The notes: generated by a model from the sequence alone, not told the origin. A stretch of 64,000 nt of DNA from Borreliella garinii (GCA_020720765.1 DYOB01000002.1:11039-75038), one strand, 5' to 3'. Counted from the first letter of the stretch, positions 4,921 through 45,088 are shown. Numbers and translations: made by a program.

Positions 4921-6729
4921 ATGAATTCCGGAAACCTTGTCCTGTACAAATCAAAACCCGCCATCCTGCTTTCCGTTGGGGAAAAACTGGAAATCCAACT
5001 CCAGGATGGAACTCAGCTTAAAGTCAGGGAAAAGGACCTTCTTTGGCTCCATGACGGACCTCTTACCAATTTTTCCCAGCTTGCTGAACAAGACTATGCA
5101 CAAAGCCTCGAAGAAGCCTACAACATCCTCGAAGGAAGCAGTACTACATTGAAGGAACTGACTTCCCTTGTAGCCTCAGAAACCGGACCGGGGGAGACTT
5201 GGAATGTTTGGGTTCAAGCCCTGGGGGAATGGTACGAAGGTACCCCGGATAACCTTGTCCCCATAAACCCTGGAGTTCGGCAGAAAAAAGCCCAGGATAG
5301 GGAGGCCAAAGACGCTAAACAGAAAGAATGGGAAGAATCCCTGGGTAATCTTATACGGGGGGTTTGGACAGAGAAAGAAAAGCCGCTTCTTACAGAGGTT
5401 GAATCCTACGCCATGGGTCGAATTCCCTCCTCACGAATTTTAAAAGCTGCTGGAAAAAAAGAAACCCCCGAAAGTGCCCATTATTGGCTCCTGCAGCTGG
5501 GATTCTGGAAAAATGACAGAGATCCTGCGCCTGAAAGAATGGGATTGAAAACCTTTGCCCCTGAAATACTTCTAAAATCCCCAAGGCTTGAGGGACGGAA
5601 GGACCTTCGCGACCTTCCCGCCTTTGCCATTGACGACGAGGGAAACCAGGACCCTGACGACGCCATCAGCTGGGACGGTAACCGGTTGTGGGTTCATATC
5701 GCAGACCCGGCGTGCATCATAGAAATGGATGATGATGCAGATTTGGAAGCACGTTCCAGGGGCGCCACCCTGTATTTACCGCAATTGACATCTCCCATGC
5801 TGCCTCTTTCAGCTGTTAGGTCTTTGGGATTGGGTTTAGCAGAGGAGAGTCCTGCCTTAAGTTTTTCGTTGGGTCTCTCAAAAGAGGGGACGATCGAGGA
5901 TATCCTAGTCATCCCCTCGCTTATCCGGGTCCGCAGACTGACCTATAACGAGGCCGACGGGCTTCTCGACAGTCCTGACTTTCAAGATCTTTATAGAATA
6001 ACTCGGCTTTCTGGTGAAAACCGTAAGAAAAACGGCTCTATCCAACTCAAACTTCCCGAAGTGAAAATTCACTATACAAATCTTGCAGTAAAAATCCTCC
6101 CGGTTCTCCCCCTCGAAAGCAGGGCGATGGTGACCGAGTCCATGCTTCTGGCCGGACAGGCTGCCGCACTCTGGGCCCAGGCAGAGAGTTTGCCTTTTGC
6201 CTTTTCAAGGCAGGACGCACCCGAAAATCCTGTGCCCCCGGGAGACGACCTCGCCTCGCAATTTGCAACGCGCAAACAGTTGAAAAAAGCCTCTTTGGGT
6301 TCTTCACCGGGGCGCCACGCGGGTTTGGGGCTGGATGCTTATACCCAAGTTACAAGCCCATTGAGACGTTATCTTGATCTTACGGCGCACCAGCAAATCC
6401 GCAGGAGGCTCGCGGGGGAACAACCTATCAGTTATCAGGATATGAGCGTCAGAATCTCCATTGCTGAGGAGGCTTCGGGATTAAACCGCAAATGCGAACG
6501 CCTGAGCCGCATGCATTTTACCCTTTTGTGGCATTTGGAAAATCCCGACTGGGTTGGTGAAGGGGTGATTGTCGAAAAGAAAGAAAGCCAAGCCGTTATC
6601 TTGGTACCGGAAACAGCCCTGGAAACCCGCATACCCTGGAAAAGCGGTTACGAGCTCAACCAAATTCTCACCCTCAAGGCCACAGAGATTTCCCTTCCAC
6701 ACCAGAGTATCCGTATGACGGTTCAATAA
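4921..6729 (+). CDS. rnb: RNB-domain 3'-5' exoribonuclease of the RNase II/R family.
   Basis: RNB catalytic motifs are present (DAKDIDDAIS-like FAIDDEGNQDPDDAISW, VHIADPA, and HAGLGLDAYTQVTSPLRRYLDLTAHQQI). Started at MNSGNLV at 4921, because the longer ORF from 4750 overlaps the divergent oppA. Confidence 0.8.
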   Translation: MNSGNLVLYKSKPAILLSVGEKLEIQLQDGTQLKVREKDLLWLHDGPLTNFSQLAEQDYAQSLEEAYNILEGSSTTLKELTSLVASETGPGETWNVWVQALGEWYEGTPDNLVPINPGVRQKKAQDREAKDAKQKEWEESLGNLIRGVWTEKEKPLLTEVESYAMGRIPSSRILKAAGKKETPESAHYWLLQLGFWKNDRDPAPERMGLKTFAPEILLKSPRLEGRKDLRDLPAFAIDDEGNQDPDDAISWDGNRLWVHIADPACIIEMDDDADLEARSRGATLYLPQLTSPMLPLSAVRSLGLGLAEESPALSFSLGLSKEGTIEDILVIPSLIRVRRLTYNEADGLLDSPDFQDLYRITRLSGENRKKNGSIQLKLPEVKIHYTNLAVKILPVLPLESRAMVTESMLLAGQAAALWAQAESLPFAFSRQDAPENPVPPGDDLASQFATRKQLKKASLGSSPGRHAGLGLDAYTQVTSPLRRYLDLTAHQQIRRRLAGEQPISYQDMSVRISIAEEASGLNRKCERLSRMHFTLLWHLENPDWVGEGVIVEKKESQAVILVPETALETRIPWKSGYELNQILTLKATEISLPHQSIRMTVQ

Positions 6730-7316
6730 GTATCTCGGTTCATCGCTTCAAAATCAGCCCTGACGCGTTCGAGCCTGGTTAAGTGGCGTTGGATGATGGC
6801 CTCATAGTTGAGTTCGCCTGATTGGATTTTATCGGACTGGTCTATCCAGAAACGGATTTCCTCAAGCTGAATAAGAGGTGAGGCGGCTGCCTTTTCAGAC
6901 CATAACTTAGCCTGGTCCCAGTAGGCGAGGGCTGCCTTGTACCATTCCTCCGCTTTTTTCAGGGATTCGAGGTTTTCCCGCTGCCATGGGGCGTTATAGA
7001 AAAACGCCGTTTGTTTGTCGAAAGCATTTGCCATTATCAAATAATTTTCGATCATCCTCAGACAGACTTGGGTGTAAAACAGGTTTCTGTACCTTTCCCA
7101 CTGAACCGCAGTTTGAATCCGGGCAAGCGCATTCAGGGGATTGGCAAAATCGGCCCGCATGGCCTGTTCAAGAAAATGGATATTTTCGGCAGCTTGGACA
7201 GGGTCCATATAGAGCTGTCTATGCACCATTTTATAGTACTGTTCTGCAAAAAAGAGTTTATAGCTGAAGGCCGGGAGTGCAAGAAAAAGAAAAATTACTG
7301 GAAAGAGCTTCTTCAT
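6723..7316 (-). CDS. Hypothetical secreted alpha-helical protein.
   Basis: 197 aa with an N-terminal signal peptide (MKKLFPVIFLFLALPAFS). It lies 6 bp downstream of tmk on the same strand. I recognise no family. Confidence 0.5.
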   Translation of the reverse strand: MKKLFPVIFLFLALPAFSYKLFFAEQYYKMVHRQLYMDPVQAAENIHFLEQAMRADFANPLNALARIQTAVQWERYRNLFYTQVCLRMIENYLIMANAFDKQTAFFYNAPWQRENLESLKKAEEWYKAALAYWDQAKLWSEKAAASPLIQLEEIRFWIDQSDKIQSGELNYEAIIQRHLTRLERVRADFEAMNRDTY

Positions 7317-7322
7317 ACTCTA

Positions 7323-7949
7323 TTATCGGATGGATGTGAGAATACTCAAAATCCCCTCGAAGATTTCATCCGGACTTTTTTCAGCGTCAAGTGCGAAGAC
7401 CTGTGAACCGCGGGTTTCGGCCCACTGGAAGGCTTTTAAATAGTTTTCCCGAACCAACCTCTGTTTCTCAACTTCCTCGAAAATCTCCCTCGTTCCTCCC
7501 CGGTGTTCCACCCTCTTCATCCCCGATTCAGGTTGGATGTCGAGAAAAATTACCTTTTCCGGGAGTGGAATCCCGAAGTTGAAGAGCTGCACAGTTTCCC
7601 AGTCGAGATCGAGCGTCTGGTAAGCTAAACTCGATAAAACACAACGGTCTGAGAGAACTAGGTTCCTTTCCAGGGTTTTTGAATAGGTACCAGTACCGGG
7701 AGAAAATAATTGTTCCCTACGGTCCGCAGCGAAGAGTTGGGCAAGTGTTGCTGGCGTGCAGGATTCCTTTCCCTGGAGAAATGACCTCAAAAGAAGCCCG
7801 ATGGGATTTCGGGTGGGTTCCCTAACAAAAATCCAAGGCTTATGATTTTGCAGCGCCCATTCGGAAAATTTGTTCCATTGGGTGGTTGTCCCGCAGCCAT
7901 CTAGCCCTTCGAGGGCGAAATAACCCGGCAAAAAGGTAGTTTCATTCAT
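7323..7949 (-). CDS. tmk: Thymidylate kinase.
   Basis: P-loop FALEGLDGCGTTTQ and the dTMP-kinase fold pattern. The likely start is MNETTF rather than the longer ORF start at 7976. Confidence 0.85.
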   Translation of the reverse strand: MNETTFLPGYFALEGLDGCGTTTQWNKFSEWALQNHKPWIFVREPTRNPIGLLLRSFLQGKESCTPATLAQLFAADRREQLFSPGTGTYSKTLERNLVLSDRCVLSSLAYQTLDLDWETVQLFNFGIPLPEKVIFLDIQPESGMKRVEHRGGTREIFEEVEKQRLVRENYLKAFQWAETRGSQVFALDAEKSPDEIFEGILSILTSIR

Positions 7950-7963
7950 GGACCCTGAGTATA

Positions 7964-9082
7964 ATGAAAAACTCAATGCAAAAAAAGAGAATTCTTATCT
8001 TTTTATTCATTCTCTTATGTCTGAAGATCTTCCCCCAAGAGGTGAGAACCATCGATATTCTTTCCGAAGGCACAGGTTTCTTCAGCCTCCCTGTACCACC
8101 GGAACTGGTCTTTCCCACAGTGATATTAATACCTGAAAATGAGCTGTCTTTTATCGATGCAAAGGAAGTAAAAAATTCTTTGCATCAAGTTGCAACTTTT
8201 TATCCTCCGGAAAACCCAGACGGTCCGACTCTACGTTATTCGTGGGAATACCTCGCTTCACTATCAAATCAAGATTTGGCTCTAAGCGGCACAGTCTACG
8301 CAAGCCAGGGACTTTTGCTTTTTGGAGTTGGGGCAAATTACCGTCATTTCGAGGAACAAAAAATTTCGTACAGTTTTCTTGCAGATCCCATCCTTTTATG
8401 GGGCGATTTTCAACCCCTAAACGAACCTTCTCTGTTAGGTGCGAACTTACACTATGATTTCGACTTGGAAAGTCTCATTTTTAAAGCAGATGCTGGATTG
8501 GTTAAGGTTTTCCCTTCAAGCCAGCTCGATTGGAACTACTCGGGACAGTTCGTGTATGTTTTTCAAAATATGGAATTTCACGGAGGTATCGGAGGAAAGA
8601 CAGGCCGGGAGCTTTTGCCGATTGTCGGTTATTCCTATTCTTCTTCAATTTGGAGTATGTTTATCCAGTACGGTTTGGATTCGATGAAGGATTATGATGA
8701 TTATTTCCCTGGTCCTCTGGGACAATTTTATTTAAGGTTCGGAGAAGGAATTTCTGCTGAAATCCACCTTGAAATCCCCTTCGATACTTGGGAAAAATCG
8801 CATTTACAGGTTTTCTATTCCCAAGACCTATCTGTAAGTTTTAATGCATTCGCAAGATTGTATTTGGAGGGGTTTTCTGCCGACGCTGAAAAAAAAGCTG
8901 TTTTTGGTATAGAATGGAAAAATGATGGTTTCTTGTCAGTTGGCGCAGGTCCCAGATTTCTTGGAACCGAACCCGGTATTTCTTTTCGAAGCACCTGGGA
9001 TTTTCTATTTGGAAGGCTAAGTGCCGATGTTACCGGCTGGAATACCTGGACATTTTCTTTAGAAGGAGCATTGCAACTCTGA
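7964..9082 (+). CDS. Hypothetical secreted protein with amphipathic beta-strand periodicity. It is a candidate outer-membrane beta-barrel and the first gene of the Tol/Ton-TamB-BamA operon.
   Basis: Signal peptide MKNSMQKKRILIFLFILLCLKIF. The C-terminal two-thirds show alternating aromatic/hydrophobic patterns (GQFVYVFQNMEF, LQVFYSQDLSVSFNAFARLYLEGF, WNTWTFSLEGALQL). Its stop overlaps the exbB start in a TGATG arrangement. Confidence 0.55.
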   Translation: MKNSMQKKRILIFLFILLCLKIFPQEVRTIDILSEGTGFFSLPVPPELVFPTVILIPENELSFIDAKEVKNSLHQVATFYPPENPDGPTLRYSWEYLASLSNQDLALSGTVYASQGLLLFGVGANYRHFEEQKISYSFLADPILLWGDFQPLNEPSLLGANLHYDFDLESLIFKADAGLVKVFPSSQLDWNYSGQFVYVFQNMEFHGGIGGKTGRELLPIVGYSYSSSIWSMFIQYGLDSMKDYDDYFPGPLGQFYLRFGEGISAEIHLEIPFDTWEKSHLQVFYSQDLSVSFNAFARLYLEGFSADAEKKAVFGIEWKNDGFLSVGAGPRFLGTEPGISFRSTWDFLFGRLSADVTGWNTWTFSLEGALQL

Positions 9083-9714
9083 TGGATATTTGGAACCCGC
9101 TAAATTGGTTTTTTTACATTCCCCTTCTTCTCTTGTCAACAACTTCGATCGCCATAATTCTCGAAAGGGCCCACCTCTACTATAAAACCCCCCTTCTTAA
9201 AACAGGGCAATATCAAAACCTCCTGACGGCTCTTAGAAAGAGGGATCTTAACCCGATTTCAGATTTTTTGAACTCGAACAAATCCAGTGAAATAGAACTG
9301 GTAAAAGATTTTCTGCTCTTCCGAAAAGTCCCTAACGCTAATCTGGATCTTCAGGTTGAACTAAGAGCCAGAGAAATCATCCAGAATAAGGAAGAACGCC
9401 TAGATATTCTGGGTTCGATCAGCGGAATAGCCACACTTATCGGGTTATTTGGAACGGTAACGGGTATGATCTGGAGTTTTTCGGCGATGAGCAGTCTAGG
9501 CAGGGCGGATCCCGCTGTGCTATCCGGCGGTATCGCCCAGGCTCTAATCACCACGGCAGCCGGTCTCACGGTAGCCATTCCAAGTTTAGCGGCCACCAGC
9601 ATTTTCAGATTCTTTTTGCGTACGCTAACACTGCGCCTCGAGTTTTTATCCGAGGAAATGATTGCACTGCCTGTTCGAAAAGAGGTGAATGAACATGGCT
9701 CGACGCAGAGTTAA
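9082..9714 (+). CDS. exbB: MotA/TolQ/ExbB family proton-channel protein.
   Basis: 210 aa with three TM segments and the conserved GLFGTVTGMIWSF / ITTAAGLTVAIP motifs of TolQ/ExbB. Confidence 0.85.
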   Translation: MDIWNPLNWFFYIPLLLLSTTSIAIILERAHLYYKTPLLKTGQYQNLLTALRKRDLNPISDFLNSNKSSEIELVKDFLLFRKVPNANLDLQVELRAREIIQNKEERLDILGSISGIATLIGLFGTVTGMIWSFSAMSSLGRADPAVLSGGIAQALITTAAGLTVAIPSLAATSIFRFFLRTLTLRLEFLSEEMIALPVRKEVNEHGSTQS

Positions 9715-10123
9715 ACTCACTCAGGACAGTCAAAACCTTGAAAGTCTGCCGCTAACGCCTCTTATGGATATTATCTTTCTTGTGACGATATTTTTTGTCC
9801 TCACAGCTGGTGCCTCGTTAAATACCGCACTGGATTTGGATTTACCAAAAGCAGAAACAGGAACGAGCTCCCTTGAAACCTCCCTGCGTATTATTGTGCG
9901 TTCACCGCAGTCAATGACCATTAACGAAAAGGAAACCTCGCTCGATGGATTTCCAGATCTACTTTCTCAAGTTATTCAAGAATCGAATATAGAAAATACC
10001 TCCGAAGTGACACTGTTGGGTTCGGAAGACATTTCCTACGGACTCCTTGTGCGCGTTATGGACAATTTACGGTCCCTGGGTTTTTACCGTATTTCCTTAA
10101 TTACCCAGGCTACATCGCAATGA
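9689..10123 (+). CDS. exbD: ExbD/TolR family biopolymer transport protein.
   Basis: 144 aa with a single N-terminal TM segment (LTPLMDIIFLVTIFFVLTAG) and the LDLDLPKA motif typical of ExbD/TolR. An alternative ATG lies at 9695. Confidence 0.85.
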   Translation: MNMARRRVKLTQDSQNLESLPLTPLMDIIFLVTIFFVLTAGASLNTALDLDLPKAETGTSSLETSLRIIVRSPQSMTINEKETSLDGFPDLLSQVIQESNIENTSEVTLLGSEDISYGLLVRVMDNLRSLGFYRISLITQATSQ

Positions 10124-10782
10124 ACGCAGTTTTTGAGTCAGGGTATGCAAAAGTTTCACTTATCGCCCACACCTGTTTACTAATTTTACTCGTGATTCTT
10201 CTTCCACGCCAGGTTCAATATCAAGAGTTTCAGGTTTCCCTCGTTGCAGATACACCTCTTCAAACAGGAGCAGGCAACCAAAGCAGTCCTTATAATTATG
10301 ACTCTGAGAAACTCCGGGTTCCTGGACTTAGGGAATCCCTACCGTCGATGATTATTCCGGAACCCGAACGGCTTGACTATAAATCAGCAGCCTTGCCCAA
10401 CGACTCAACACCAACCTCAACAAACGAAACCGTTAATTTTGAATTTTCTGCCGATGAAATTCTTTTTGAAAACGAAAACACCGCTGAAATTTCAAAACTA
10501 TCAAACACCCAAGCTGAATGGGAATCTGGCGGCGGAATGCTTAGAGACTCCCTTGATTATTCTGATCTAAGTAAGTTGACCCTGACACAAAGTATACGTC
10601 TTAGAGTAATTCTCAACGTGTCCAAAGAAGGTCTAATTTTAAGTTTTTCAGGCGCGCAAACAGGAAATACTGAAATTGATGAATCCCTTTCGACCTTTAT
10701 CAGGAAACTTTCTTTCAGGCCGGCAGACCAAGATTATTCAGCTATTCTACTACTTACTCTTCAACCTGGAGATGCCTTTTGA
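10120..10782 (+). CDS. TonB/TolA-like energy-transducer protein.
   Basis: 220 aa. The N-terminal TM anchor contains an S-x3-H motif (SLIAH), as in TonB/TolA. A Pro/Thr-containing linker is followed by a C-terminal domain matching the TonB-C pattern (IRLRVILNVSKEGLILSFSGAQTGNTEIDESLSTFIRKLSFRP). ATGA overlaps join it to both exbD and tamB. Confidence 0.65.
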   Translation: MNAVFESGYAKVSLIAHTCLLILLVILLPRQVQYQEFQVSLVADTPLQTGAGNQSSPYNYDSEKLRVPGLRESLPSMIIPEPERLDYKSAALPNDSTPTSTNETVNFEFSADEILFENENTAEISKLSNTQAEWESGGGMLRDSLDYSDLSKLTLTQSIRLRVILNVSKEGLILSFSGAQTGNTEIDESLSTFIRKLSFRPADQDYSAILLLTLQPGDAF

Positions 10783-13700
10783 AAATTCCCTGGAAGAAGT
10801 TGAATCCAGTTTTAGGAATAGCGGGTTTAATCTTCATTCTTCTCGGATACTTTCCGCTAACAGCATTTGTTGACGCTCAACTGTTAAAATTGAAAGATGG
10901 ACTGATTACCCAGTTAGAAACCCTTATAGCAAGGAAAATATCTTATGATAGTATTTCCCCGGCAATCTTTAATGGGATAGAAATTCGTGGATTGGTTTTG
11001 GAAGGTGGCAATTCTAAAAGCAGGATAGAACTATCAAAAATAGTCCTGTCCTACGATATTTTTGATTTTTTTCTCCGCGGTGAATCGCTTCTCAGCGAAA
11101 TCCGCATCGTTTCAAGCGATATCCAACTCGATACCCAAAGGGACAAAGATATCCTCGAACTGATTGAAGTACTTGTGAAACAAAAGGACGGGATTCCCCC
11201 GATTACTGTTATCGGAGAAGATCTTGCCTTATCCATTTCTGATAAAGGAAACAGTTACTCCGTCGAAAACATCTTCTTTAGATTTGAAAACTTAGGCGAA
11301 TCCTATACTTTTTCTTTGGATGCTGAAGTCAATGGAGAATTTACGGAAGATTTTTTTAGTATCGAGGATTTTCAATCTACACTTTCTGTGAGAGGACGTT
11401 TTGATAAGCCATTTCGCGATGCCTTAGTCGAATTGCGTATCGATACTTTGAAAACAAATTTATTTTCAGTTAATGCTCAATCCGTTCGCATAGGGGTTTT
11501 GGGCGATATAGTAACTGTAAGAAATATCCAGAATTCCCAGCCCATGGACTTGCTTTTCAGCCTTGATCAAAGAGATGATTCCTGGCGCTTAGATTTTATG
11601 GGTGAATCCATTTCTCCATCTGATATCATTACCATTAATCAAAATGCCGAACTTTTAACACCTTGGTTATATTCGTCCTTCTCCGGCAATGGTTTTATTC
11701 AACAGAATAGCCAAGATACTTTTTTCTCTTTCGACGGCAAGATATCAGTAGATCCCAGGCTTTTTGGCGACAGACTGAATGTGAGTACAAGTTTTCATGG
11801 TGATGATAAAATTTTTATTTTCGACACTTTAAATATTCAGAAATCCGGGTTGAACATCTCTTACCAGGGGGATGTCGAATTCCTACACCGAAGTCTGAGC
11901 GGAAAACTTGAGATCTCCGAATGGACTCTCCCCAATTCCGAAGTTATCAAAGGCAGGTTGTATTTTTCCAAAACCACAGAGGGTTTAACGGCGGGAAGGG
12001 CTGAATATTTCTCAGTGGGAAACCGGCAAGCAGAAAGCTTGACAATCCAAGGGGATTTTAGTTCTGAAAACGGTTACCTGAATATTAACCTTGATATGCT
12101 CGATTCGCTTTTTGCAAATGATGGAATCCAAGTTCAGTTTACAGCGAATTGGATCCGTGATTATTTTCAAGGGTTTAAGTCGAATTTGGTTTTCAGTGAA
12201 CTTCCCCTTTCTTTGATAGTTGATCAATTCGAAAAAGTTCCATCGACCTTTGTTGATTTTTCTGACCCATGGAGGGTGTCAGGAAATATTGGAATACTTT
12301 GGTCAAATAATTTTCCCCAGATAAATATAGACAGTCTTGCCTTCAATGATATTCAAGCTAATTCACGCCGACTTCAGGTTATAGGTTCGTTTAATCCCTG
12401 GTCCCTCAAACTCAAGCAGGCAACCTTGGATTGGGACGATGTAACGATGAACATAACAGCGGATGCTCAAAGAATACGCAATGAATGGACTATCAAAATG
12501 TCCATAGATTCTGGGGAGATTTCCTATCAAGCGGATATTGCTTTCCAGGTGAACAGCCGAAGTTTTATTCTTAATGGGAATTACGGTACCAGGCTCTCGT
12601 TTAAGGAGAATAATAATATTACGACCATCGATTGGAGTGCTGAGAATTTACCTGTTCCTTTTTATGGTTCGCCCATCCTTTTATCGACTCAAGGAACCTT
12701 TTTTTCTTCACAGAACGAATGGAGCGTTACAGACGGTTTTATTAAAATAACGAAGGAGTCCTGGGGAAGTATTCAGTCCCTCGAGTTTCAAACAAAAATC
12801 AATTCTTACGGCTCCTTGATATACCTCACTCAGACATCGTATTCAGACTCGCTATCCGAACTCAAAGGTTACGGCATGGTCCCTGTAACTCAAAATGGAT
12901 TATGGTCTGCATCGCTTCTTTTATCTAATAATCAAAGTGAATCCTTAGGCTTGCTTTTCGAGCAAAGTGTGACAGAGAACCGGCTTAACCTTCAAATCAA
13001 CAGGATGCCGTTGGAACGTTTAGGTCTGACAGATATAAAAGGACGGTTTTCAACAAATACACTTTTTCTACAAAAAGATGAAGTGTGGAGTGGGGAGGTC
13101 TACATTGATATTTCTGAAGGACGGATGGGACAGGACGCCTTTTCACTTCAAGGTTTGGCAAGGTTTGAGGATCAAAACATTTTGATTGAAACCGGAAAGA
13201 TTGATTACCTCCAGCAAAGTCTTTCAAATATTAGGGGGCAATTAAACCTAAAGGAGGGGGTTGCCAAACTTGGAGCGGTTTTTCAGGGAACGGTACAGGG
13301 AGCGCCCTTGAATTTTGATGTAAATTCAGATATTTCCCTTGGAGAACAGATTCGTTTCAGCGGAAATGACTTCAGCGTTGATAGGATCACCGGAAGGGTG
13401 GCATTAACAAAAATTACATATAACAAAGAATCCCAAAATGATTTCGTTATGACTTTAAGCAAAATCCGTTCTGTGACAACTATTAGGGGTGGAGAGGGGA
13501 ATTCCTTTTTAGGACGAATCACAGACGACGGAAATTTTAGGTTTCAATTAAATTCTCCTTCTCCTGTCCAATTCAGGTTTGACGGGAGGTTGGATAATGG
13601 AAATTTATCCTCAAATATCACTGGAATTCAATTTGATGCACAAGCACTTTCGTTTTTTATTGGTGAAGGAATCGCTAAAATCCGAAGAGGGGAAATCATA

Positions 13701-15005
13701 GGCGATATTTCTATCAACGGCCCAATTAGCAACCCCAATATTCTAGGAACCCTCCTTGTTAACCAGATCAGCGGAAAAAGCACCCTGGTGGGAGGAGATT
13801 TCGGACCCATCAACACCCAGCTGATTTTTTCAGAGCAAGGCTTGGAAATCGCGGAAACCCGTTTCCGTATAGGGTCGGGCTCAGTCTCACTGCGTGGTGT
13901 ATTTTTATTGGATAGATGGATACCCGAACGATATATCTTTTCTGTTGATGTCAAGGTTGGTGAAGAAATAACGCTGACTTATAACGTTAATCCTTTACAG
14001 ATGATAGGAAATATAGCGGGAACCTTCGAAATCCAGGGGAATTCTTTTGGAGCAAATATTAAAGGAAACCTTATACTCAGCGAGACTTTGATAAATATTG
14101 TCCCTGTAGCCCCTGAACCCGCTACAGTCAGCAATTTTAATATCAACACAGATTTGGTCATTACTTCGGGAAACAGGGTAGAATTTGTATGGCCCTTTGC
14201 CAACTATCCCATAATAAGAGCTTATATTGCCCCCAAACAGCAAATTATTTTTCAAAGTGAAGGATTCACCGGAAATTATAAACTTATAGGAAGTCTGAAT
14301 ATACGCGGCGGTGAAATCTTTTATTTAAATCAGATTTTCTTTTTACGTGAAGGGGAAATGCGTTTTAACGAAAACCAGAATAAGTTCGATCCCTTCCTTA
14401 CTCTGAGAGCGGAATTAAGGCGCAGAGAACCAGAAGGAGCGGTGATCATAGTCCTTTTGGTTCAAGATTTTCTGAGCAAGTTCAGCCCCAGGTTTGAATC
14501 AATTCCCCCTAAGTCCCCTGAAGAAATCGCCCTTTATATAGGAAATACCATACTTTCTCCCGATCAGTACACAAGGATCGGGTTCGAGGGCGCTATCAAC
14601 TTTGCGACGGATATAGGCTCTTCGTTTGTTCTCAGGCCTTTTGAACAACTCGTCAAGGACACATTTCAGCTCGATTTATTTACAGTTCGGACACAAATTC
14701 TCCAGCGATTTGTAACAGGGGGACTAGACAATAAGGCTGCAACATTGGAGGATTATCTCGACAACACGAGTCTTTTCCTTGGAAAGTACTTGGGTGAGGA
14801 CCTTTTTGTAGAAGGTTTGTTAAGTTTGAATGCGGATAAGGATATTAATAGTCTAACTTACGGGGAAATAAGCGGTGAAGTCGAGCTTGGTTTGGAATTG
14901 CAAACTCCTTTTTTTCTTTTAAACTGGAAACTTGTACCTCAAACGCCTTCTCAGTTGTTTATACCGGATAATACCCTTTCCTTCAGTTGGAGATGGACGT
15001 ACTAA
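10779..15005 (+). CDS. tamB: Translocation and assembly module protein TamB (AsmA-like, DUF490 C-terminus).
   Basis: 1408 aa with an N-terminal TM anchor and a long beta-rich periplasm-spanning body. It sits immediately upstream of bamA and skp, as in spirochete TamB loci. Confidence 0.8.
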   Translation: MKIPWKKLNPVLGIAGLIFILLGYFPLTAFVDAQLLKLKDGLITQLETLIARKISYDSISPAIFNGIEIRGLVLEGGNSKSRIELSKIVLSYDIFDFFLRGESLLSEIRIVSSDIQLDTQRDKDILELIEVLVKQKDGIPPITVIGEDLALSISDKGNSYSVENIFFRFENLGESYTFSLDAEVNGEFTEDFFSIEDFQSTLSVRGRFDKPFRDALVELRIDTLKTNLFSVNAQSVRIGVLGDIVTVRNIQNSQPMDLLFSLDQRDDSWRLDFMGESISPSDIITINQNAELLTPWLYSSFSGNGFIQQNSQDTFFSFDGKISVDPRLFGDRLNVSTSFHGDDKIFIFDTLNIQKSGLNISYQGDVEFLHRSLSGKLEISEWTLPNSEVIKGRLYFSKTTEGLTAGRAEYFSVGNRQAESLTIQGDFSSENGYLNINLDMLDSLFANDGIQVQFTANWIRDYFQGFKSNLVFSELPLSLIVDQFEKVPSTFVDFSDPWRVSGNIGILWSNNFPQINIDSLAFNDIQANSRRLQVIGSFNPWSLKLKQATLDWDDVTMNITADAQRIRNEWTIKMSIDSGEISYQADIAFQVNSRSFILNGNYGTRLSFKENNNITTIDWSAENLPVPFYGSPILLSTQGTFFSSQNEWSVTDGFIKITKESWGSIQSLEFQTKINSYGSLIYLTQTSYSDSLSELKGYGMVPVTQNGLWSASLLLSNNQSESLGLLFEQSVTENRLNLQINRMPLERLGLTDIKGRFSTNTLFLQKDEVWSGEVYIDISEGRMGQDAFSLQGLARFEDQNILIETGKIDYLQQSLSNIRGQLNLKEGVAKLGAVFQGTVQGAPLNFDVNSDISLGEQIRFSGNDFSVDRITGRVALTKITYNKESQNDFVMTLSKIRSVTTIRGGEGNSFLGRITDDGNFRFQLNSPSPVQFRFDGRLDNGNLSSNITGIQFDAQALSFFIGEGIAKIRRGEIIGDISINGPISNPNILGTLLVNQISGKSTLVGGDFGPINTQLIFSEQGLEIAETRFRIGSGSVSLRGVFLLDRWIPERYIFSVDVKVGEEITLTYNVNPLQMIGNIAGTFEIQGNSFGANIKGNLILSETLINIVPVAPEPATVSNFNINTDLVITSGNRVEFVWPFANYPIIRAYIAPKQQIIFQSEGFTGNYKLIGSLNIRGGEIFYLNQIFFLREGEMRFNENQNKFDPFLTLRAELRRREPEGAVIIVLLVQDFLSKFSPRFESIPPKSPEEIALYIGNTILSPDQYTRIGFEGAINFATDIGSSFVLRPFEQLVKDTFQLDLFTVRTQILQRFVTGGLDNKAATLEDYLDNTSLFLGKYLGEDLFVEGLLSLNADKDINSLTYGEISGEVELGLELQTPFFLLNWKLVPQTPSQLFIPDNTLSFSWRWTY

Positions 15006-15020
15006 ATTAGAGGAGTGTGA

Positions 15021-17633
15021 ATGAAAAAATTACTTTGGACCCTGGGCTTTTTCTTGGCAACCATGGTTTCGGGATATTCCCAGGAAGAGCCTGAAGCATC
15101 GACGTGGTATTTGGAAAAACCTATACGTGAAATTAAGTTTGACGGTCTCCGTTCGGTGAGCGGAACAGAACTTGATTCCCTGGTTAAACCCTACATTGGA
15201 CAAAAATTTAACGACGTTCTTTTCCGCGAGCTTCAAACCACACTTTATGGTCTTGATTACTTTGAAGGCTTTATTAGGCCGGAAGTGCAGAAAGCAGATC
15301 CCGAGGGGAATTCAATAGTTTTGATTTTTTACGTCCAGGAGAAACCTTCTATCAAGGAAATCCGTTTTATCGGAAACACCAGATTATCGACACAAGAATT
15401 GAGAGAAAAAATCAGTATAAAAGCCGACGATCTTTTAAGCAGTCCGAAAATTCGCCTCGATGAGCGGGCTTTAAGGGATTTTTATATCGAGAAGGGCTAT
15501 ACAACGGCAAGGATAGGCAGCGAAGTCGAAACCCTCGAGAATGTCAACAAAGTCATTCTTACTTTTAAAGTTGAGGAAGGAAATCAAACCCTTGTTAAAT
15601 CCATCACCTTTGAAGGGATCTCTTTTGCAACTGAAGGTAGCCTTCGAGGAGTCTTAGCCAGCAAACAACAGGCCTTTTTTGATTCTGGAATCTTTAAGGA
15701 AATCAACCTGGTTCAGGATAAAAATAATATACACGCCTATTACTGGGATAGAGGATACGTTGATGCAAAAGTTTTGGAAATACGGCGCCCTACGACGCTC
15801 AATCCTGAAACCCAGCGAGTGGAAATGGACTTGGTCTTCGTTATTAGCGAGGGTGACCTCTTTACTTATGGAAATACAACCTTTGAAGGGAACGGTATAT
15901 TTTCGGATGAAGAGCTTGGTCTCCTTGTAAAACACGTTCCTGATACGATTCTCAGCAAACAAAAAACCGACCTTGATTACCAGAGGATTCTCGACCTGTA
16001 TTATGAAAATGGATATATTTTTAATACGATAGAGCGCGAAGAAATCCGTGATGGCTCCATCGTCAACTTCGTGATTAAAATTATTGAACGACCTCGGGCA
16101 CATATTGAAAATATTATTGTCCGGGGAAATACTAAAACCCATGAAAATGTCATACTCCGTGAAATCCCCCTTGAGCCGGGTGACGTTTTCAGCAAATCAA
16201 AGATTATCGAAGGTATACGAAACCTCTACAACCTTCAGTATTTTTCAACTGTAAATCCTGAAACCCCCCAGGGCAGCGCGGATGGATTAATGGATGTTGT
16301 TATTTCTTTAGAAGAGGCAAATACCGCCGAGATCCTTTTCGGTTTGGCCTTTAGCGGTTCTACAGATTTCCCTGTATCAGGCCAATTGAAATGGCAGGAT
16401 AGAAACTTCCTTGGCCGAGGTCAGACATTAGGTGTTGAGGCCAATGTTTCTCCGGTTCAACAAAGCCTTTCTGCAAACTTTTCCGACAGTTGGGCTTTTG
16501 ACCAAAGACTTACATTGGGTGGATCGTTTTCTATAGGCCACTATTATCGAACTGGGATAGACCAGGACGTTGCCTTTCCTTTTTACACAGACGACTATAT
16601 CCCAGATCCTTACGACAACCATACCTATGTTTTTACTACTCCGACAACATATGGTCCAATAACGTATCAACCCGGCCAAGTATTTCCGGGTGTACCCGAT
16701 GCAACAGAGATCAGTACCTATAACCTTAAACTACAATACCAGTACGACCAGGAAAACGGCATTTTAAAAAGCGGTAAGAACTCAATGACCCTGGATGAAT
16801 GGTCTTTTTCCTTGGGTCTTAATACTGGCTATTCGCTTTTTACATGGCTTGGAAGGTTTATTTTCGGGACAGGTTTAAACTCAACCTTACAATTTGTGAC
16901 CTACGATTCGACAATTTACCGCCCTGCCAACGAATCCTTAAGGGAAAACCTTAACGCATGGATTTTTGAGAACTCCTGGTCTTCAAGGGCTTTTTGGGAT
17001 ACAAGGGATTTTATCTATAACCCTGAAATGGGAACGCTTTTAGGTTTTTCTTATACTGTTATGGGTGGATTCCTCGGTGGTTCAGCGCACTTTACCCGTT
17101 TTCAGATCAAAGGTGAGGCCAACTATAAGCTCGTTAATATCGAACTTACCGACTGGTATACCTATAAACTCATAGCCAGGGTCCGTTCGGTTATGTCCTT
17201 TATTTCTGAACCTCTTGGTGGCCCCGGTGAAATAGTTGCTCAGCCAAAACATTTGCTCTATGTTGATGGAATGACTGCTGGACGCGGTTGGAGGCCTACG
17301 AGTTCATTACAAAACGGTACCAGTTCTTGGTCTATAAACTTCGAATTCCGAATGCCAGTTGTAGAATCATTACTTTGGTTCGATACCTTTTTTGATATCT
17401 TCAGTATTAAACATGAGAGTACGCCCTTACTCCCGCTAAGCCTGCAAGACCTCTATTTAAGTTATGGTTTTGGGCTAAGGGTCACAAACCCCCAGTTACC
17501 CATTGGTCTGTATTTGGCTAAAACTTTCCGAGTAGACGAGGCAAACTCCGTTGTTTGGCAATCTGGAGATGGTATCTTTGGTTCGGATATTGATATGCGC
17601 TTAATTTTAACGTTTGGGTTTGATCTATATTAG
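15021..17633 (+). CDS. bamA: Outer membrane protein assembly factor BamA (Omp85).
   Basis: 870 aa with a signal peptide, POTRA-like repeats (IREIKFDGLRSVSGTEL..., IKEIRFIGNTRLS..., IENIIVRGNTKTHENVILREIPLEPGDVFS) and a C-terminal beta-barrel domain. Confidence 0.9.
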   Translation: MKKLLWTLGFFLATMVSGYSQEEPEASTWYLEKPIREIKFDGLRSVSGTELDSLVKPYIGQKFNDVLFRELQTTLYGLDYFEGFIRPEVQKADPEGNSIVLIFYVQEKPSIKEIRFIGNTRLSTQELREKISIKADDLLSSPKIRLDERALRDFYIEKGYTTARIGSEVETLENVNKVILTFKVEEGNQTLVKSITFEGISFATEGSLRGVLASKQQAFFDSGIFKEINLVQDKNNIHAYYWDRGYVDAKVLEIRRPTTLNPETQRVEMDLVFVISEGDLFTYGNTTFEGNGIFSDEELGLLVKHVPDTILSKQKTDLDYQRILDLYYENGYIFNTIEREEIRDGSIVNFVIKIIERPRAHIENIIVRGNTKTHENVILREIPLEPGDVFSKSKIIEGIRNLYNLQYFSTVNPETPQGSADGLMDVVISLEEANTAEILFGLAFSGSTDFPVSGQLKWQDRNFLGRGQTLGVEANVSPVQQSLSANFSDSWAFDQRLTLGGSFSIGHYYRTGIDQDVAFPFYTDDYIPDPYDNHTYVFTTPTTYGPITYQPGQVFPGVPDATEISTYNLKLQYQYDQENGILKSGKNSMTLDEWSFSLGLNTGYSLFTWLGRFIFGTGLNSTLQFVTYDSTIYRPANESLRENLNAWIFENSWSSRAFWDTRDFIYNPEMGTLLGFSYTVMGGFLGGSAHFTRFQIKGEANYKLVNIELTDWYTYKLIARVRSVMSFISEPLGGPGEIVAQPKHLLYVDGMTAGRGWRPTSSLQNGTSSWSINFEFRMPVVESLLWFDTFFDIFSIKHESTPLLPLSLQDLYLSYGFGLRVTNPQLPIGLYLAKTFRVDEANSVVWQSGDGIFGSDIDMRLILTFGFDLY

Positions 17634-17644
17634 AGGAGTAAGAC

Positions 17645-18157
17645 ATGAAGAAATTTATGAGTGTCCTGGGGATTTTGCTTATTGGGGCAAGTTTGGGAGC
17701 CCAACAATTCACCAGGATCGGCGTTGTTGATCTCAACAGGGTATATTCCCAATTCTTCCGTGAATCGGAGCCTGTAAAACGTCTGGAAGAATTGAGAAAT
17801 ACGATTCAGAGGGAAGTAGCCCGGATGAATGAAGAGATTAACGGGCTTGAAAAAAATAGGTTGGATGCTCAAGCAGCAAACGATAGCCGGACGGTACTAA
17901 CTTTGGATCAATCAATTCAAACAAAAAAAGATTATCTGAGGGAATTTGTGCGTGTCCGACAAGCTCAGTTGAATTCCGAACGTGAAGCCCTGACGAGAAA
18001 TACATCATTTCTAACAAGAATCACTGCGGAAATCCGGTTCGTTGCTGAGTCGAAAGGGTATACTATGGTATTTAGGACTGACGACCCTAATCTCCTCTAT
18101 TACAACGTTGAATCAGATTTGACGGAAGATGTGATTAAAAGGCTGATAACCCCCTGA
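17645..18157 (+). CDS. skp: Periplasmic chaperone Skp/OmpH.
   Basis: 170 aa with a signal peptide, a coiled-coil-rich middle and the OmpH-like motif IGVVDLNRVY. Immediately downstream of bamA. Confidence 0.8.
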   Translation: MKKFMSVLGILLIGASLGAQQFTRIGVVDLNRVYSQFFRESEPVKRLEELRNTIQREVARMNEEINGLEKNRLDAQAANDSRTVLTLDQSIQTKKDYLREFVRVRQAQLNSEREALTRNTSFLTRITAEIRFVAESKGYTMVFRTDDPNLLYYNVESDLTEDVIKRLITP

Positions 18158-31406: not shown

Positions 31407-32860
31407 AGAATAGTTTTTGGTTTCTCCTCTTTATCTCTACATGGAATCTTTTCGCAACTGGAGAGAAGGAAGGCTCCTCTTTACCTCAAGTTAACACTCC
31501 TGGGAGCACCTTGATTCCCCTACCATCTGAGTTGTCTTCAGAAAGTTTTAAGATTCGTATCGAAACACAAGAATTAAACTTTTCTCCAGGTGAAGTGAAT
31601 CTTGAAAAATGGAAGAGATTGGAACAATCGGAAGAAAGCCTGAAGGTAGCGCTACTCGAACTCATTTTACATAGTCATGATATTTCCCCCCAGGAAAAAG
31701 CAGGAGCGCAGTATTTGCTCGCCAATCTTTTTTATGAGAATGGTTTATTTCTTCGAAGTATGGATTTGTTCATTCAGTGTCTTTCTTTGATTCAATCACC
31801 GCTCATCCGGCTGAGGATAGTTGAAATAGGAACCTTTTATAAAGATTGGAACCGTGATCAAATTCTTACAGGGCTTTCAGGATTAAGAAATTCTGATTTT
31901 AAACTTGAAAGAGATAATGATATCTTTCGGCTTCTCAGAGCAAAAACACTTTGGACCCGCTATGATGTTGGTTCTTGGGGAATGACGGAAAACAGCCTAA
32001 GCGCCTTGGCGCTCGACGGTGATGACCTATGGGCCGGTACGTGGAACGGTGGGATCTTTAGGTTTAGCAGAAGTACATTAACAGCAAAGGTCTTCCAACC
32101 AGGTCAATATAAACTAACCCCTAACTCAATTAAATCTATTCAGGTTGATCCATTTGCCGTCTGGTTTGCAGGACTTGATGGAATCCATCGGTATAATAAA
32201 GTCAATGAACAATGGCGCACTTATCCCCTTCCTCCTGAAGTACAAGCTGAAAGGGTTCAGGGGATGTATCGTATACATTCACGCCTTTACCTTGTAACCC
32301 TTGGTCATGGAATCTGGCGGCTTGATAGAACAGAATGGGAAAAAATGAATACAGGGAATGCCTCAGAAATGGTAACCATCCTTAAAGAAACATCAAATGG
32401 AAATGTTTTTTTGGGTACCATGGACCGGGGACTTTTCCTTTGGAATCCTGAAAGAAATACCCTGAATTCTTTTTTTAATTCTCAAACCCGATTACCAAGG
32501 AATATCACTGCGCTGGAAGAGGATGCCGAATACTTATGGATTGGCACGTATGGGGAAGGGTTGTTCCGTTTCAATAAAAACTCAAATACTATGACCCATT
32601 ACACCAAAAGATCGGGTGAACTGCCTGATGATTGGATTATGAGTTCCACGAGTTATCAGAAATTTTTATATTTCGGAACATTCGGCGGCGGACTCATCAG
32701 GGTTATTCCAGACCCGACTCCGGTCTTTACTCCTTTAGAGCCTTTTGGTTCCCCATCAGACATTCTTTCCATAGCGGTTCAAAGGGATTGGGTTTGGCTC
32801 GGTACACTAAAAGAAGGACTCGTTATTCTTCACCCGGAGGGTTTGGATGAAAATCGCTAA
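31403..32860 (+). CDS. Secreted beta-propeller repeat protein (two-component-regulator-propeller-like repeats), with a helical TPR-like N-terminus.
   Basis: Signal peptide MKNSFWFLLFISTWNLFA. Repeated W-x-GT-x-GG-hydrophobic blades (LWAGTWNGGIFRF, LWIGTYGEGLFRF, LYFGTFGGGLIRV, VWLGTLKEGLVIL). Confidence 0.55.
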   Translation: MKNSFWFLLFISTWNLFATGEKEGSSLPQVNTPGSTLIPLPSELSSESFKIRIETQELNFSPGEVNLEKWKRLEQSEESLKVALLELILHSHDISPQEKAGAQYLLANLFYENGLFLRSMDLFIQCLSLIQSPLIRLRIVEIGTFYKDWNRDQILTGLSGLRNSDFKLERDNDIFRLLRAKTLWTRYDVGSWGMTENSLSALALDGDDLWAGTWNGGIFRFSRSTLTAKVFQPGQYKLTPNSIKSIQVDPFAVWFAGLDGIHRYNKVNEQWRTYPLPPEVQAERVQGMYRIHSRLYLVTLGHGIWRLDRTEWEKMNTGNASEMVTILKETSNGNVFLGTMDRGLFLWNPERNTLNSFFNSQTRLPRNITALEEDAEYLWIGTYGEGLFRFNKNSNTMTHYTKRSGELPDDWIMSSTSYQKFLYFGTFGGGLIRVIPDPTPVFTPLEPFGSPSDILSIAVQRDWVWLGTLKEGLVILHPEGLDENR

Positions 32861-34136
32861 ACCCTCAATTTTAAATATGTACATATCGAAAGAAATCCTC
32901 TTTTCTTTTCTAGTCAGCTTCCTTCTATTTTTTGTTTTATTTTTGGTCAATCAATTTCTCGTCATGGCTGAACAAATACTCTCCCGCAGAGTGCCCTTCG
33001 TCGAGGTCGGGCTTTTAATCCTTTTTGCTATGCCCTCTGTTATAGCCTTGACCGCCCCATTTGCAACTCTCATAGCTACACTTATGGCTTCCAACCGTTT
33101 GAACGCTGACAATGAAATACTAGCCATGGAATCCTTGGGAATTAAAAAACGAAAAATCCTTATTCCATTTATTTTTTGGGGTGTGATTTTTACCTTAACG
33201 AGTTTCTTTGTCAATGATATCCTGATGCCAGTAGGGCATATCAACTACGTTCGACTTCTGAGATCTCTTATTTTCCGTGTGCCCGAACTGGAACTCAGCC
33301 CGTATACAGTGAGAGATTACCGGGACCTTATCCTTGTAACAGGCGACGTAAAAGATGGAGTTGTCCACGATCTCTTGATTTTCGACAGAACTACGGATAA
33401 TAAATTCCGCTCTATCAGCGCCCAATTTGCGAGACTGAAAGAATCCGATGAAAAAGCAGGCATCATTTCTATTGAACTCTATGGAAATGTCATGGGCATC
33501 ATCCCTGATCAAAGGATTAAGGAGAATTTTGAATATTTCCTTGCTGAAAAAATGGTCTATAATATTCTCCTTAAGGATGTCATAGCCTCAGCAAGTAATC
33601 CAACTGCGGCGGATATGAGCAGTTACGATGTTTGGTTGGAAATACAGAACAAACAACGGCTTCTCGACGACCTAAAAAATCAGAGAAAAATGAATCTAGA
33701 AGCTTTAAAGAGGGAACTAGCACAAAGTTACCAGGATGTTGGAAGTCAACTGAAAAAAGGGGTTTATGAGCTAACCACATTAGAATTGCCCCTTGTGCCG
33801 ATCTTGCAAAGAATCCATTCAGAAACAGCTGCACCCATCCAAGACAACACCCTTGTTGCTTGGAAATATGAATTCTATCAGAAGTTTTCAATTCCTATCA
33901 GCTGTATTCTTTTTAGCCTAATAGGTTTTCCTTTAGGTCTATTTAGCCGAAAAAGCGGAAGGATGATCGGCTTCGGTATTGGGCTTATCGTTTCTTTTTT
34001 ATATTGGGCTTTATTGTTGGGTGCGAGAAGGTTGAGCGGACAAATAGATTTCGACCCCTGGCTTATTATGTTCACACCTAACATTTTACTGATTATCAGT
34101 GGTATAATTCTGGTGAAACTGATGTTAAAACGATGA
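32847..34136 (+). CDS. lptF: LptF/LptG family permease (YjgP/YjgQ).
   Basis: 429 aa with N-terminal TM helices, a large periplasmic domain and C-terminal TM helices. Paired with a paralogous permease gene immediately downstream. Confidence 0.75.
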   Translation: MKIAKPSILNMYISKEILFSFLVSFLLFFVLFLVNQFLVMAEQILSRRVPFVEVGLLILFAMPSVIALTAPFATLIATLMASNRLNADNEILAMESLGIKKRKILIPFIFWGVIFTLTSFFVNDILMPVGHINYVRLLRSLIFRVPELELSPYTVRDYRDLILVTGDVKDGVVHDLLIFDRTTDNKFRSISAQFARLKESDEKAGIISIELYGNVMGIIPDQRIKENFEYFLAEKMVYNILLKDVIASASNPTAADMSSYDVWLEIQNKQRLLDDLKNQRKMNLEALKRELAQSYQDVGSQLKKGVYELTTLELPLVPILQRIHSETAAPIQDNTLVAWKYEFYQKFSIPISCILFSLIGFPLGLFSRKSGRMIGFGIGLIVSFLYWALLLGARRLSGQIDFDPWLIMFTPNILLIISGIILVKLMLKR

Positions 34137-44443: not shown

Positions 44444-45088
44444 ATGCTTTTAATCGCACCTTCAGTATTATCTGCGGATTTCTCCAACGTAGAAAAAGCT
44501 ATTCAAAAAATATCGGAGTCGGGAGCGGATCTTATCCATTACGATGTGATGGATGGGGATTTTGTACCCCCCATCACATTCGGGAGTCAGTTTATTGAAC
44601 AGGCTCAAAAAAAGACCAAACTTGACGCAGATGTTCATTTGATGATCTCAAAGCCTTGGAAACATTTTGCCTCCTTTGCCAAATCCGGTGCCAAATACCT
44701 GACTTTTCATTACGAGGCGGCTGTTCATCACCACCGTCACTTGCAGGAAATCCAGGCTTTAGGAATCAAGGCTGGAATATCTATCGTTCCATCAACCCCG
44801 GTATCCGTACTTTCAGAACTCTTACCGTTTTTAGACCTCATTCTTATCATGTCGGTGAATCCAGGTTATGGTGGACAGAGTTTTCTTCCATTCTGCCTAA
44901 GAAAAATACAATATTTGGCTGAAAATAAAGAAAAAAACGGGTATTCTTATCTTATCAGCGTAGATGGTGGAATCAATGAAAAAACTGCTGTGGAGGCCCG
45001 GCTTGCCGGTGCCGATATACTAGTGACAGGGTCGAGTTTTTTTAACTCGGATCATCCGGCAGATTTAATAAGCAGGTTGAGAAAATGA
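44444..45088 (+). CDS. rpe: Ribulose-phosphate 3-epimerase.
   Basis: 214 aa with Rpe motifs (IAPSVLSADF, IHYDVMDGDFVP, VDGGIN). Confidence 0.9.
   Translation: MLLIAPSVLSADFSNVEKAIQKISESGADLIHYDVMDGDFVPPITFGSQFIEQAQKKTKLDADVHLMISKPWKHFASFAKSGAKYLTFHYEAAVHHHRHLQEIQALGIKAGISIVPSTPVSVLSELLPFLDLILIMSVNPGYGGQSFLPFCLRKIQYLAENKEKNGYSYLISVDGGINEKTAVEARLAGADILVTGSSFFNSDHPADLISRLRK

Follow-up and report, generated by a model that had tools for sequence, protein, structure and literature searches.

In TonB and TolA, an S-x3-H motif in the transmembrane (TM) helix couples the protein to ExbB/ExbD, and an aspartate in the TM segment of ExbD is the proton-accepting residue of Ton/Tol stators. In the Agl-Glt gliding machinery of Myxococcus, a TolQR/ExbBD-type stator and TonB-like proteins power an envelope-spanning machine that is not a receptor. 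The tamB-bamA-skp genes of Borrelia are presumably BB0794-0796. This cluster is established in Spirochaetes and other phyla (PMC5007114, PMC5491611, PMC13018214), with Selkrig 2012, Heinz 2015 and Iqbal 2016 cited on TamB-BamA-Skp in PMC5007114 and PMC5491611. TamB, a member of the AsmA family, is a candidate lipid transporter, and its interaction with BamA is documented in Borrelia (Iqbal 2016, as cited in PMC5491611). Transfer of phospholipids between the inner membrane (IM) and outer membrane (OM) has been known since 1980 to depend on the proton-motive force (PMF), with only early postulates as to why (PMC10345924), and the lipid-binding partner of the Tol-type motor has been termed 'yet-to-be-identified' (PMC11889096). 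Here, a locus is described from a 64,000-nucleotide stretch of Borreliella garinii DNA (GCA_020720765.1, DYOB01000002.1:11039-75038; the whole stretch is referred to below as the window) in which genes for a Ton/Tol-type motor lie directly upstream of tamB-bamA-skp and the transducer gene overlaps tamB, an overlap conserved across deeply divergent spirochete genomes. The genes of the locus, the divergent gene at its upstream boundary and three short motifs discussed below are as follows.

7323..7949, - strand: tmk (dTMP kinase; TIGR00041, E 1.5e-36), divergent upstream boundary
7964..9082, + strand: gene X, first gene of the predicted operon, 372 amino acids (aa); secreted, unknown fold, candidate OM or periplasmic partner
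8048..8101, + strand: conserved N-terminal motif of X (TIDILSEGTGFFSLPVPP), TonB-box-like, a few residues past the signal-peptide cleavage site
9082..9714, + strand: ExbB/TolQ-type stator subunit, 210 aa (PF01618)
9689..10123, + strand: ExbD/TolR-type stator subunit, 142-144 aa (PF02472)
9767..9769, + strand: codon of the ExbD TM aspartate D27 (LTPLMDIIFL), motif conserved
10120..10782, + strand: divergent TonB-family transducer by profile comparison, 220 aa; N-terminal TM helix, linker and C-terminal TonB_C-like domain
10156..10170, + strand: S-x3-H motif (S13-L-I-A-H17) in the TM helix of the TonB-like protein
10779..15005, + strand: TamB ortholog, 1408 aa, TTG start; AsmA-like, with inner-membrane anchor
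15021..17633, + strand: BamA, 870 aa; five POTRA domains and Omp85 barrel
17645..18157, + strand: Skp/OmpH periplasmic chaperone, 170 aa (PF03938)

A scan of the window for open reading frames (ORFs) found seven + strand ORFs between 7964 and 18157, all in the order and at the positions given in the initial annotation of this sequence. The X stop codon overlaps the exbB start as TGATG (9080-9084), exbB and exbD overlap by 20-26 nt, exbD and the tonB-like gene share an ATGA at 10120, and gaps of 15 bp and 11 bp, each containing AGGAG, separate tamB from bamA and bamA from skp. The TGATG, the first ATGA and both gaps had been called correctly; the ATGA claimed at 10779 is in fact TTGA, the start codon of tamB being TTG. 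The genes had also been described as translationally fused and in-frame, which is wrong: the overlaps, of 1-26 nt, lie between separate ORFs in different frames, and the stop/start overlaps of the window are translational coupling with no fusion. On the 3' side of skp are a STAS gene (- strand) and then mutS. The GC content of the module (0.430) matches that of the window (0.433) and shows no compositional anomaly, so that nothing suggests recent acquisition. The start codons of tmk and X diverge across only ~14 bp (window 7949-7964), implying either promoters inside neighbouring coding sequence or an operon driven from further upstream. Indirect support for co-transcription comes from the overlaps and from gaps that do not exceed 15 bp. 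Consensus scans returned 24 promoter-like sites with 20.5 expected from shuffled sequence and 9 terminator-like sites with 14.5 expected, neither better than chance.

Family and profile searches bore out the gene content first proposed, namely ExbB/TolQ, ExbD/TolR, a TonB-like protein, TamB, BamA and Skp. Window ExbB matched PF01618 (E 2.9e-25; 88.9 bits, cutoff 22.9) and window ExbD matched PF02472 (E 5.4e-20). Against NCBIfam models, ExbB scored 50.9 bits with the ExbB equivalog (cutoff 206), and is thus no equivalog, and 69.5 bits with TIGR02796 tolQ (cutoff 221); in the PDB its nearest match was TolQ (8odt, 52 bits), with ExbB chains at 38-41 bits. ExbD scored 56.5 bits with TIGR02801 tolR (cutoff 127) versus 34.6 bits with ExbD in NCBIfam, and in the PDB was nearest to ExbD (7ajq_F, 36 bits), TolR scoring 28.5 bits. 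Judged by these profiles the stator fits neither the Ton nor the Tol type clearly. The ExbB TM2 motif GLxGTVxGM and the ExbD motif [TS]P[LF][ILM]D, which includes the TM aspartate, were each found in 24 of 24 TamB-linked loci and the stator therefore looks functional. The glutamate in TM3 of E. coli TolQ (GIAEAL) is a glutamine in window ExbB (GIAQAL, residues ~155-170), and the same glutamine is present in all 21 scorable TamB-linked ExbB proteins.

The 220-aa product of the fourth gene had no match in Pfam, NCBIfam or PDB searches; among 5.8e9 indexed proteins it found itself alone, and exhaustive phmmer gave six matches among 1.84e9 representatives. In distant genomes the gene between exbD and tamB carries a TonB_C domain (PF03544), present in 15 of 15 syntenic proteins, and a profile of these matched 11 solved TonB chains in the PDB (9ddz, 1e-7) and no TolA. 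When a 10-sequence profile of the window clade was compared by hhalign with the 15-sequence syntenic TonB_C profile, the whole C-terminal domain aligned with 97.5% probability (E 6.4e-12), an earlier and shallower comparison of the same families having given 85%. The fourth gene is, on this transitive profile homology rather than a direct match, a divergent TonB-family protein, and the TonB/TolA-like transducer of the initial annotation can be narrowed to the TonB family by synteny-guided profile comparison. The S-x3-H TM motif also claimed for it is present at S13 and H17, and is found in all motor-linked TonB-like orthologs. Its linker (residues 32-130) contains 8% proline and is rich in Ser/Thr and acidic residues, so is not a Pro-rich spacer; a low-confidence AlphaFold2 (AF2) model predicts it to be disordered, not helical. 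Pro-rich linkers do occur in some TonB-like orthologs (locus L010 and the D-type loci).

Window BamA matched TIGR03303 (439.4 bits, cutoff 297), with five copies of PF07244 and one PF01103, and window Skp matched PF03938 (E 2.1e-21; 77 bits, cutoff 32.4). Our own Pfam scan of window TamB alone gave no match; a precomputed match to PF27414 (TP_0324_N) exists, the protein has an N-terminal TM segment and aligns over its full length with orthologs carrying PF04357 TamB, and the TamB family profile (A8) matches a solved TamB (9xdc_B, E 7e-6).

Conservation of the linkage was examined from both the stator and the TamB side. Of 12 ExbB homologs (35-56% identical) with contig context, 10 are TamB-linked, in the layout X-exbB-exbD-tonB-tamB-bamA(-skp) with tmk usually divergent upstream; the other two contexts are TPR-TPR-exbB-exbD and exbB-exbD-msbA-lpxK-kdsB. 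A TamB-anchored tblastn scan, taking one genome per species and full-length matches, yielded 80 spirochaetal loci, all of Spirochaetales, Spirochaetaceae, Sediminispirochaeta or Marispirochaeta type, the window's own genome not being among them. After annotation with locally built hidden Markov models (HMMs), 73 loci were informative. Their configurations upstream of tamB are listed below, and as the sample is biased to relatives of motor-bearing queries these fractions are not prevalences.

X-exbB-exbD-tonB-tamB (window type): 5/73 loci
X-exbB-CNNM-CNNM-exbD-tonB-tamB: 15/73 loci
tmk, then tonB-tamB only: 6/73 loci
CNNM-CNNM-tamB: 1/73 loci (L049)
No motor: 46/73 loci, with tmk directly abutting tamB in 45

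A full motor thus lies upstream of tamB in 20 of the 73 species-level Spirochaetia loci, and the linkage spans several deep clades in which TamB is only 23-32% identical. That the adjacency might be conserved in no relative had been named at the outset as grounds for doubt; it is found in at least 20 species-level genomes from several deep clades. The tonB and tamB genes overlap in 27 of 31 loci, by the 4-nt type in 24, and exbD and tonB overlap in 24 of 24, with median gaps of +20 nt for tamB-bamA and +12 nt for bamA-skp. On these figures tonB-tamB ranks with the tightest junctions of the locus, and only exbD-tonB equals it. Because the arrangement recurs in dozens of distantly related genomes, it is far beyond chance.

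The initial annotation had tmk directly next to tamB in Borreliaceae; the tmk-tamB order is uninterrupted in 45 related species. The module sits exactly at the tmk/tamB junction, which fits the insertion suggested there, but a module already present in the ancestor and lost repeatedly is just as possible. The module is always directly upstream of tamB, also where the upstream neighbour is PPDK/sigma-70 (L006, L008, L009). In a neighbour-joining (NJ) tree of TamB, motor loci fall in at least three places, namely a deep clade including the window, L014 among motor-less loci, and a large clade in which L010 is joined by the tonB-only, CNNM-only and CNNM-motor loci. Within clades, the branching of ExbB follows that of TamB, indicating co-inheritance there. 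A single clade of TamB-linked ExbB proteins could not be shown, generic ExbB/TolQ sequences falling between the two linked groups in a 200-aa NJ tree whose deep nodes are unreliable. With deep nodes of this quality, a single insertion followed by losses and several transfers cannot be told apart.

Two paralogous genes of the CNNM/CorC family (DUF21-CBS-CorC_HlyC) lie between exbB and exbD in the 15 species noted above (L006:10157-12654, L008:10617-13135, L022, L030 and others). At L049 only the CNNM pair (7541-9903) lies ahead of tamB; remnants of motor genes were looked for at this locus and none was found. The E. coli K-12 CNNM homolog paeA/ytfL (L095:3873-5216; BLASTP E 1e-17) lies on the other strand from tamA-tamB, two genes away, a proximity that may be coincidence.

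In six species a tonB-like gene overlaps tamB while exbB, exbD and X are all absent (L023:9168-9902, L066:9126-9902, L077:9087-9905, L067, L070 and L074). In L023 and L066 the stator-coupling Ser and His are both replaced, with TonB_C strongly conserved and still overlapping tamB; S-x3-H is intact in L067, L070 and L074, and the N-terminus of L077 appears degraded. Since the tonB-tamB pair persists without exbBD, without X and even without the Ser and His residues, these sequences argue for TamB (or BamA), rather than X or the stator, as the partner with which the TonB-like protein is constantly associated.

The wider relatives of the stator were sampled by an ExbD-anchored metagenome scan, in which the TM pattern used is generic. 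Eighty loci were recovered, 45 of them informative with at least 2.5 kb of downstream sequence, comprising 8 TamB-linked contexts of the spirochete type, 27 of the form exbB-exbD-(msbA)-lpxK-(kdsB) and 10 others, so that clusters for OM lipids make up 35/45. Many of the short metagenome contigs have msbA or lpxK directly after exbD. The exbB-exbD-(msbA)-lpxK-(trm112)-kdsB order is seen at L094:9001-13801 and at L101, L102, L104, L109-L112, L120, L129, L131, L135, L137, L138 and others; the PA2983-PA2979 genes of Pseudomonas aeruginosa presumably have the exbB-exbD-msbA-lpxK-kdsB-type arrangement. One locus, L128, was missed by the TonB HMM and has a 227-aa S-x3-H/TonB_C-like gene overlapping both exbD and tamB, and an X protein with the conserved motif. 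The nearest stator relatives are mostly in clusters for OM-lipid biogenesis, not in nutrient-uptake loci. No functional study of exbBD-lpxK-kdsB was found in the literature, and this is apparently a second, unstudied association of a Ton/Tol-type stator with OM-lipid biogenesis.

Gene X encodes a protein with a signal peptide. It has no match in Pfam or NCBIfam and none in the PDB with three different profiles, family scans found no Plug or TonB_dep_Rec domain and no signature of a 22-strand barrel, and a word-indexed search returned two relatives among 5.8e9 proteins. The initial call of a beta-barrel outer-membrane protein (OMP) is thus unproven, neither confirmed nor refuted by these negative searches and by an AF2 model with a mean predicted local distance difference test (pLDDT) score of 27. 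Positional equivalents lie upstream of exbB in motor loci, the region being truncated or masked in two; they range from ~110 to 545 aa and fall into two main size classes, between which no homology is detected when window-type and C-type profiles are compared by hhalign. X proteins of the window clade have beta-signal-like C-termini (…EVTKQW, …SMEW). Whatever their length, X proteins with a readable N-terminus contain the motif LxLP(D/E)(V/I)(T/I)(L/V)x(G/A/T)E(D/Y)..PxP. The TonB boxes in the E. coli K-12 record are DTITVTA (FhuA) and DTLVVTA (BtuB), and the X motif is TonB-box-like, resembling them in position and in its alternation of acidic, beta-branched and hydrophobic residues, a resemblance and not a test of function.

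The reading favoured here, held with about even confidence, is that a Ton-type PMF transducer is functionally dedicated to the TamB-BamA module, with X, carrying a TonB box, in an accessory role. The locus would then be a single envelope-biogenesis operon in which a Ton/Tol-type PMF transducer is co-expressed and translationally coupled with TamB-BamA-Skp. The S-x3-H helix of the TonB-like protein would sit within the ExbB/ExbD stator and hold the protein in the inner membrane; from there it would span the periplasm to exert PMF-driven force on a partner strand, which could be supplied by X through its N-terminal motif or by TamB or BamA through an edge strand. Such force might energise or gate the TamB/BamA-dependent traffic of phospholipids, OMPs or both between the membranes. 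A more specific and tentative proposal, which we would place on the doubtful side of even, is that the TonB-like protein and its ExbB/ExbD stator are devoted to the TamB bridge, either energising it by PMF or gating it. Co-transcription, physical contact, energy coupling and the nature of the cargo are what we infer, the step from gene coupling to function resting on the conserved translational coupling.

Several observations weigh against a motor dedicated to TamB-BamA. All of the evidence is genomic context, from a survey sample enriched in relatives of motor-bearing queries. As tamB-bamA-skp has no motor beside it in 46 of the 73 related species, the motor must be dispensable for core TamB/BamA function or else encoded elsewhere. 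Comparison of TamB N-termini and lengths between motor-linked and unlinked loci revealed no motor-specific feature. X bears a TonB-box-like motif, so the direct target of TonB could be X alone. Structure prediction added little: the AF2 model of X, from a three-row alignment, is the one with pLDDT 27 given above, and the TonB-like protein, modelled from its single sequence, reached pLDDT 43, with confidence confined to a helix at residues 2-31. A general Ton role may also lie beyond the 64-kb window, which is the extent of the census of TonB and TonB-dependent receptors.

An alternative that we consider unlikely is that the genes encode a general-purpose Ton system for receptors elsewhere and for X, their position next to tamB reflecting envelope co-regulation or the compaction of spirochete genomes. 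That the syntenic orthologs end in a genuine TonB_C domain speaks for such a system; against it, the overlap of tonB with tamB is kept across deep divergence in 27/31 loci, and tonB-tamB has outlasted exbBD, X and the S/H coupling residues. The TonB-box-like motif makes a classical interaction between TonB and an OM protein plausible for X, although X has no Plug or TonB_dep_Rec domain in family scans, and neither a TonB-dependent receptor nor a second Ton set was found in the 64-kb window. Absence of the module from tamB in most relatives is in keeping with a general role, and Leptospira are described as using Ton systems for iron and heme uptake; against this, the closest non-spirochete relatives of the stator reside in OM-lipid clusters and not in nutrient-uptake loci.

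A Tol-Pal-like integrity system appears similarly improbable; it would work alongside TamB, neither touching nor powering it directly, to stabilise or constrict the OM or in retrograde lipid homeostasis, as Tol-Pal does in E. coli, with X as a TolB-like protein engaged through an N-terminal 'TolA-box'. In its favour, ExbB is nearer TolQ in both NCBIfam (69.5 vs 50.9 bits) and the PDB (52 vs 38-41 bits) and ExbD scores better with the NCBIfam TolR model (56.5 vs 34.6 bits), but every Tol equivalog score falls far short of its cutoff and in the PDB ExbD is nearer ExbD than TolR. The third component matches solved TonB and not TolA, at 220 aa is too short to hold the helical domain II of TolA, and is accompanied in the operon by no gene for TolB, Pal or CpoB. 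Operons often group related but non-interacting envelope genes. The primary role of Tol-Pal has been argued to be OM lipid homeostasis (PMC11889096). A Tol-Pal-like reading leaves the tonB-only loci that still overlap tamB unexplained.

It is very improbable that the motor is dedicated to X, driving its export, surface exposure or gating, with tamB-bamA-skp downstream because BamA/TamB assemble X, since tonB-tamB persists without X and since X is very variable in length, with size classes not detectably homologous, which would be odd for a central cargo, even though X, exbB and exbD are gained and lost together (X being absent from tonB-only loci), X is conserved only in the TonB-box-like motif near its N-terminus, and X of the window clade ends in a beta-signal-like C-terminus (…W).

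Other features of the window were recorded alongside the operon. Downstream of tmk, the gene at 6723-7316 on the - strand encodes 197 aa, with a signal peptide but no family match, and distant relatives have a counterpart of the same size, position and strand (in L003, L005, L093 and the P0017 contig). Genes for LptF, LptG, MurJ and a TPR lipoprotein are found at 32847-35215, 36350-37801 and 45085-46005; the lipoprotein passes the Pfam YfiO/BamD threshold (29.2 bits vs 25), and from the presence of LptF and LptG the organism probably exports lipopolysaccharide (LPS). An 899-aa protein encoded at 40679-43378 (- strand) ends in ~155 residues that form a complete GreA/GreB, its first ~740 residues having no family match; a long N-terminally extended GreA is typical of spirochetes. 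A CHASE2-sensor adenylate/guanylate cyclase of 805 aa is encoded at 56181-58598, and adjoining its gene at 54558-55490 is that of a sigma-54 activator with no receiver domain. A plain ORF scan shows the GC-rich, skewed stretch at 22-28 kb to be protein-coding, and from their N-terminal sequences its genes are tentatively read as nusA-infB-rbfA-truB-pnp. Rfam and tRNA scans of the 64 kb detected no tRNA, rRNA or Rfam RNA.

The finding, which rests on comparative genomics of mostly uncultured lineages, touches the question of how PMF might drive bulk movement of phospholipids through AsmA-like bridges (TamB, YhdP, YdbH). It also bears on the lipid-handling partner of Tol/Ton-type motors, for which the tonB/tamB overlap in dozens of divergent spirochete genomes offers a candidate pairing. 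If the more specific proposal, of a motor devoted to energising or gating the TamB bridge, is true, the locus would represent a natural, hard-wired coupling of an AsmA-like intermembrane lipid transporter with a 5:2 ion-driven motor, and would suggest a mechanism for the PMF dependence of IM-to-OM phospholipid transfer. The msbA-lpxK-kdsB neighbours of the nearest stator relatives extend the lead beyond spirochetes, and on that proposal the locus and the exbB-exbD-msbA-lpxK-kdsB clusters together would define a widespread, unrecognised class of Ton/Tol-type stators for OM-lipid biogenesis. Were the adjacency only a matter of co-regulation, it would still be a synteny marker, tamB loci of Spirochaetia occurring in at least five configurations.

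Compared with the Ton system of Gram-negative bacteria such as E. coli (solved complexes 9ddo and 6tyi), the window shares an ExbB of PF01618, an ExbD of PF02472 with the TM aspartate, a putative TonB-family protein whose TM helix bears S-x3-H and whose C-terminal domain is of TonB_C type, the usual exbB-exbD-tonB neighbourhood, and in X a candidate partner with a TonB-box-like N-terminal strand. It differs in having no TonB-dependent receptor at the locus, X possessing no plug, in a linker that is not Pro-rich, in a C-terminal domain too divergent for Pfam, in an ExbB that is nearer TolQ and has the TM3 Glu replaced by Gln, and in a tonB gene translationally coupled to tamB, no such description of a Ton system having been found in the literature.

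With Tol-Pal the locus has in common a 5:2-type PMF stator and an IM-anchored transducer with a SHLS-type motif, its ExbB being most like solved TolQ, and the connection of Tol-Pal with OM lipid homeostasis (PMC11889096) falls in the physiological area of TamB. In contrast to Tol-Pal, the window transducer matches TonB and has no long helical domain, the TolQ and TolR scores are far below equivalog cutoffs, and no tolB, pal or cpoB was found in the operon or in the scanned parts of the window. The likeness to Agl-Glt of Myxococcus is in concept only, the partner proteins and the function being different. The exbB-exbD-msbA-lpxK-kdsB clusters contain the nearest non-spirochete relatives of ExbB and ExbD, with the LTPLID…FL TM motif and an operon-like array with OM-lipid genes, but have no TonB-like gene and no X, the partners being lipid A/LPS enzymes and the MsbA flippase.

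The ancestral TamB-BamA-Skp cluster has the same three genes in the same order as the window, followed by mutS and in most relatives preceded by tmk; the window adds X, exbB, exbD and the tonB-like gene between tmk and tamB, with tonB overlapping tamB. A motor upstream of tamB is not mentioned in PMC5007114, PMC5491611 or PMC13018214, and the supposition in the initial annotation that the linkage had not been described agrees with the literature, where no paper linking Ton to TamB was found, absence there being no proof. Both tamB-bamA-skp and Ton-type motors are known; what appears to be new is their conserved, overlapping genetic coupling.

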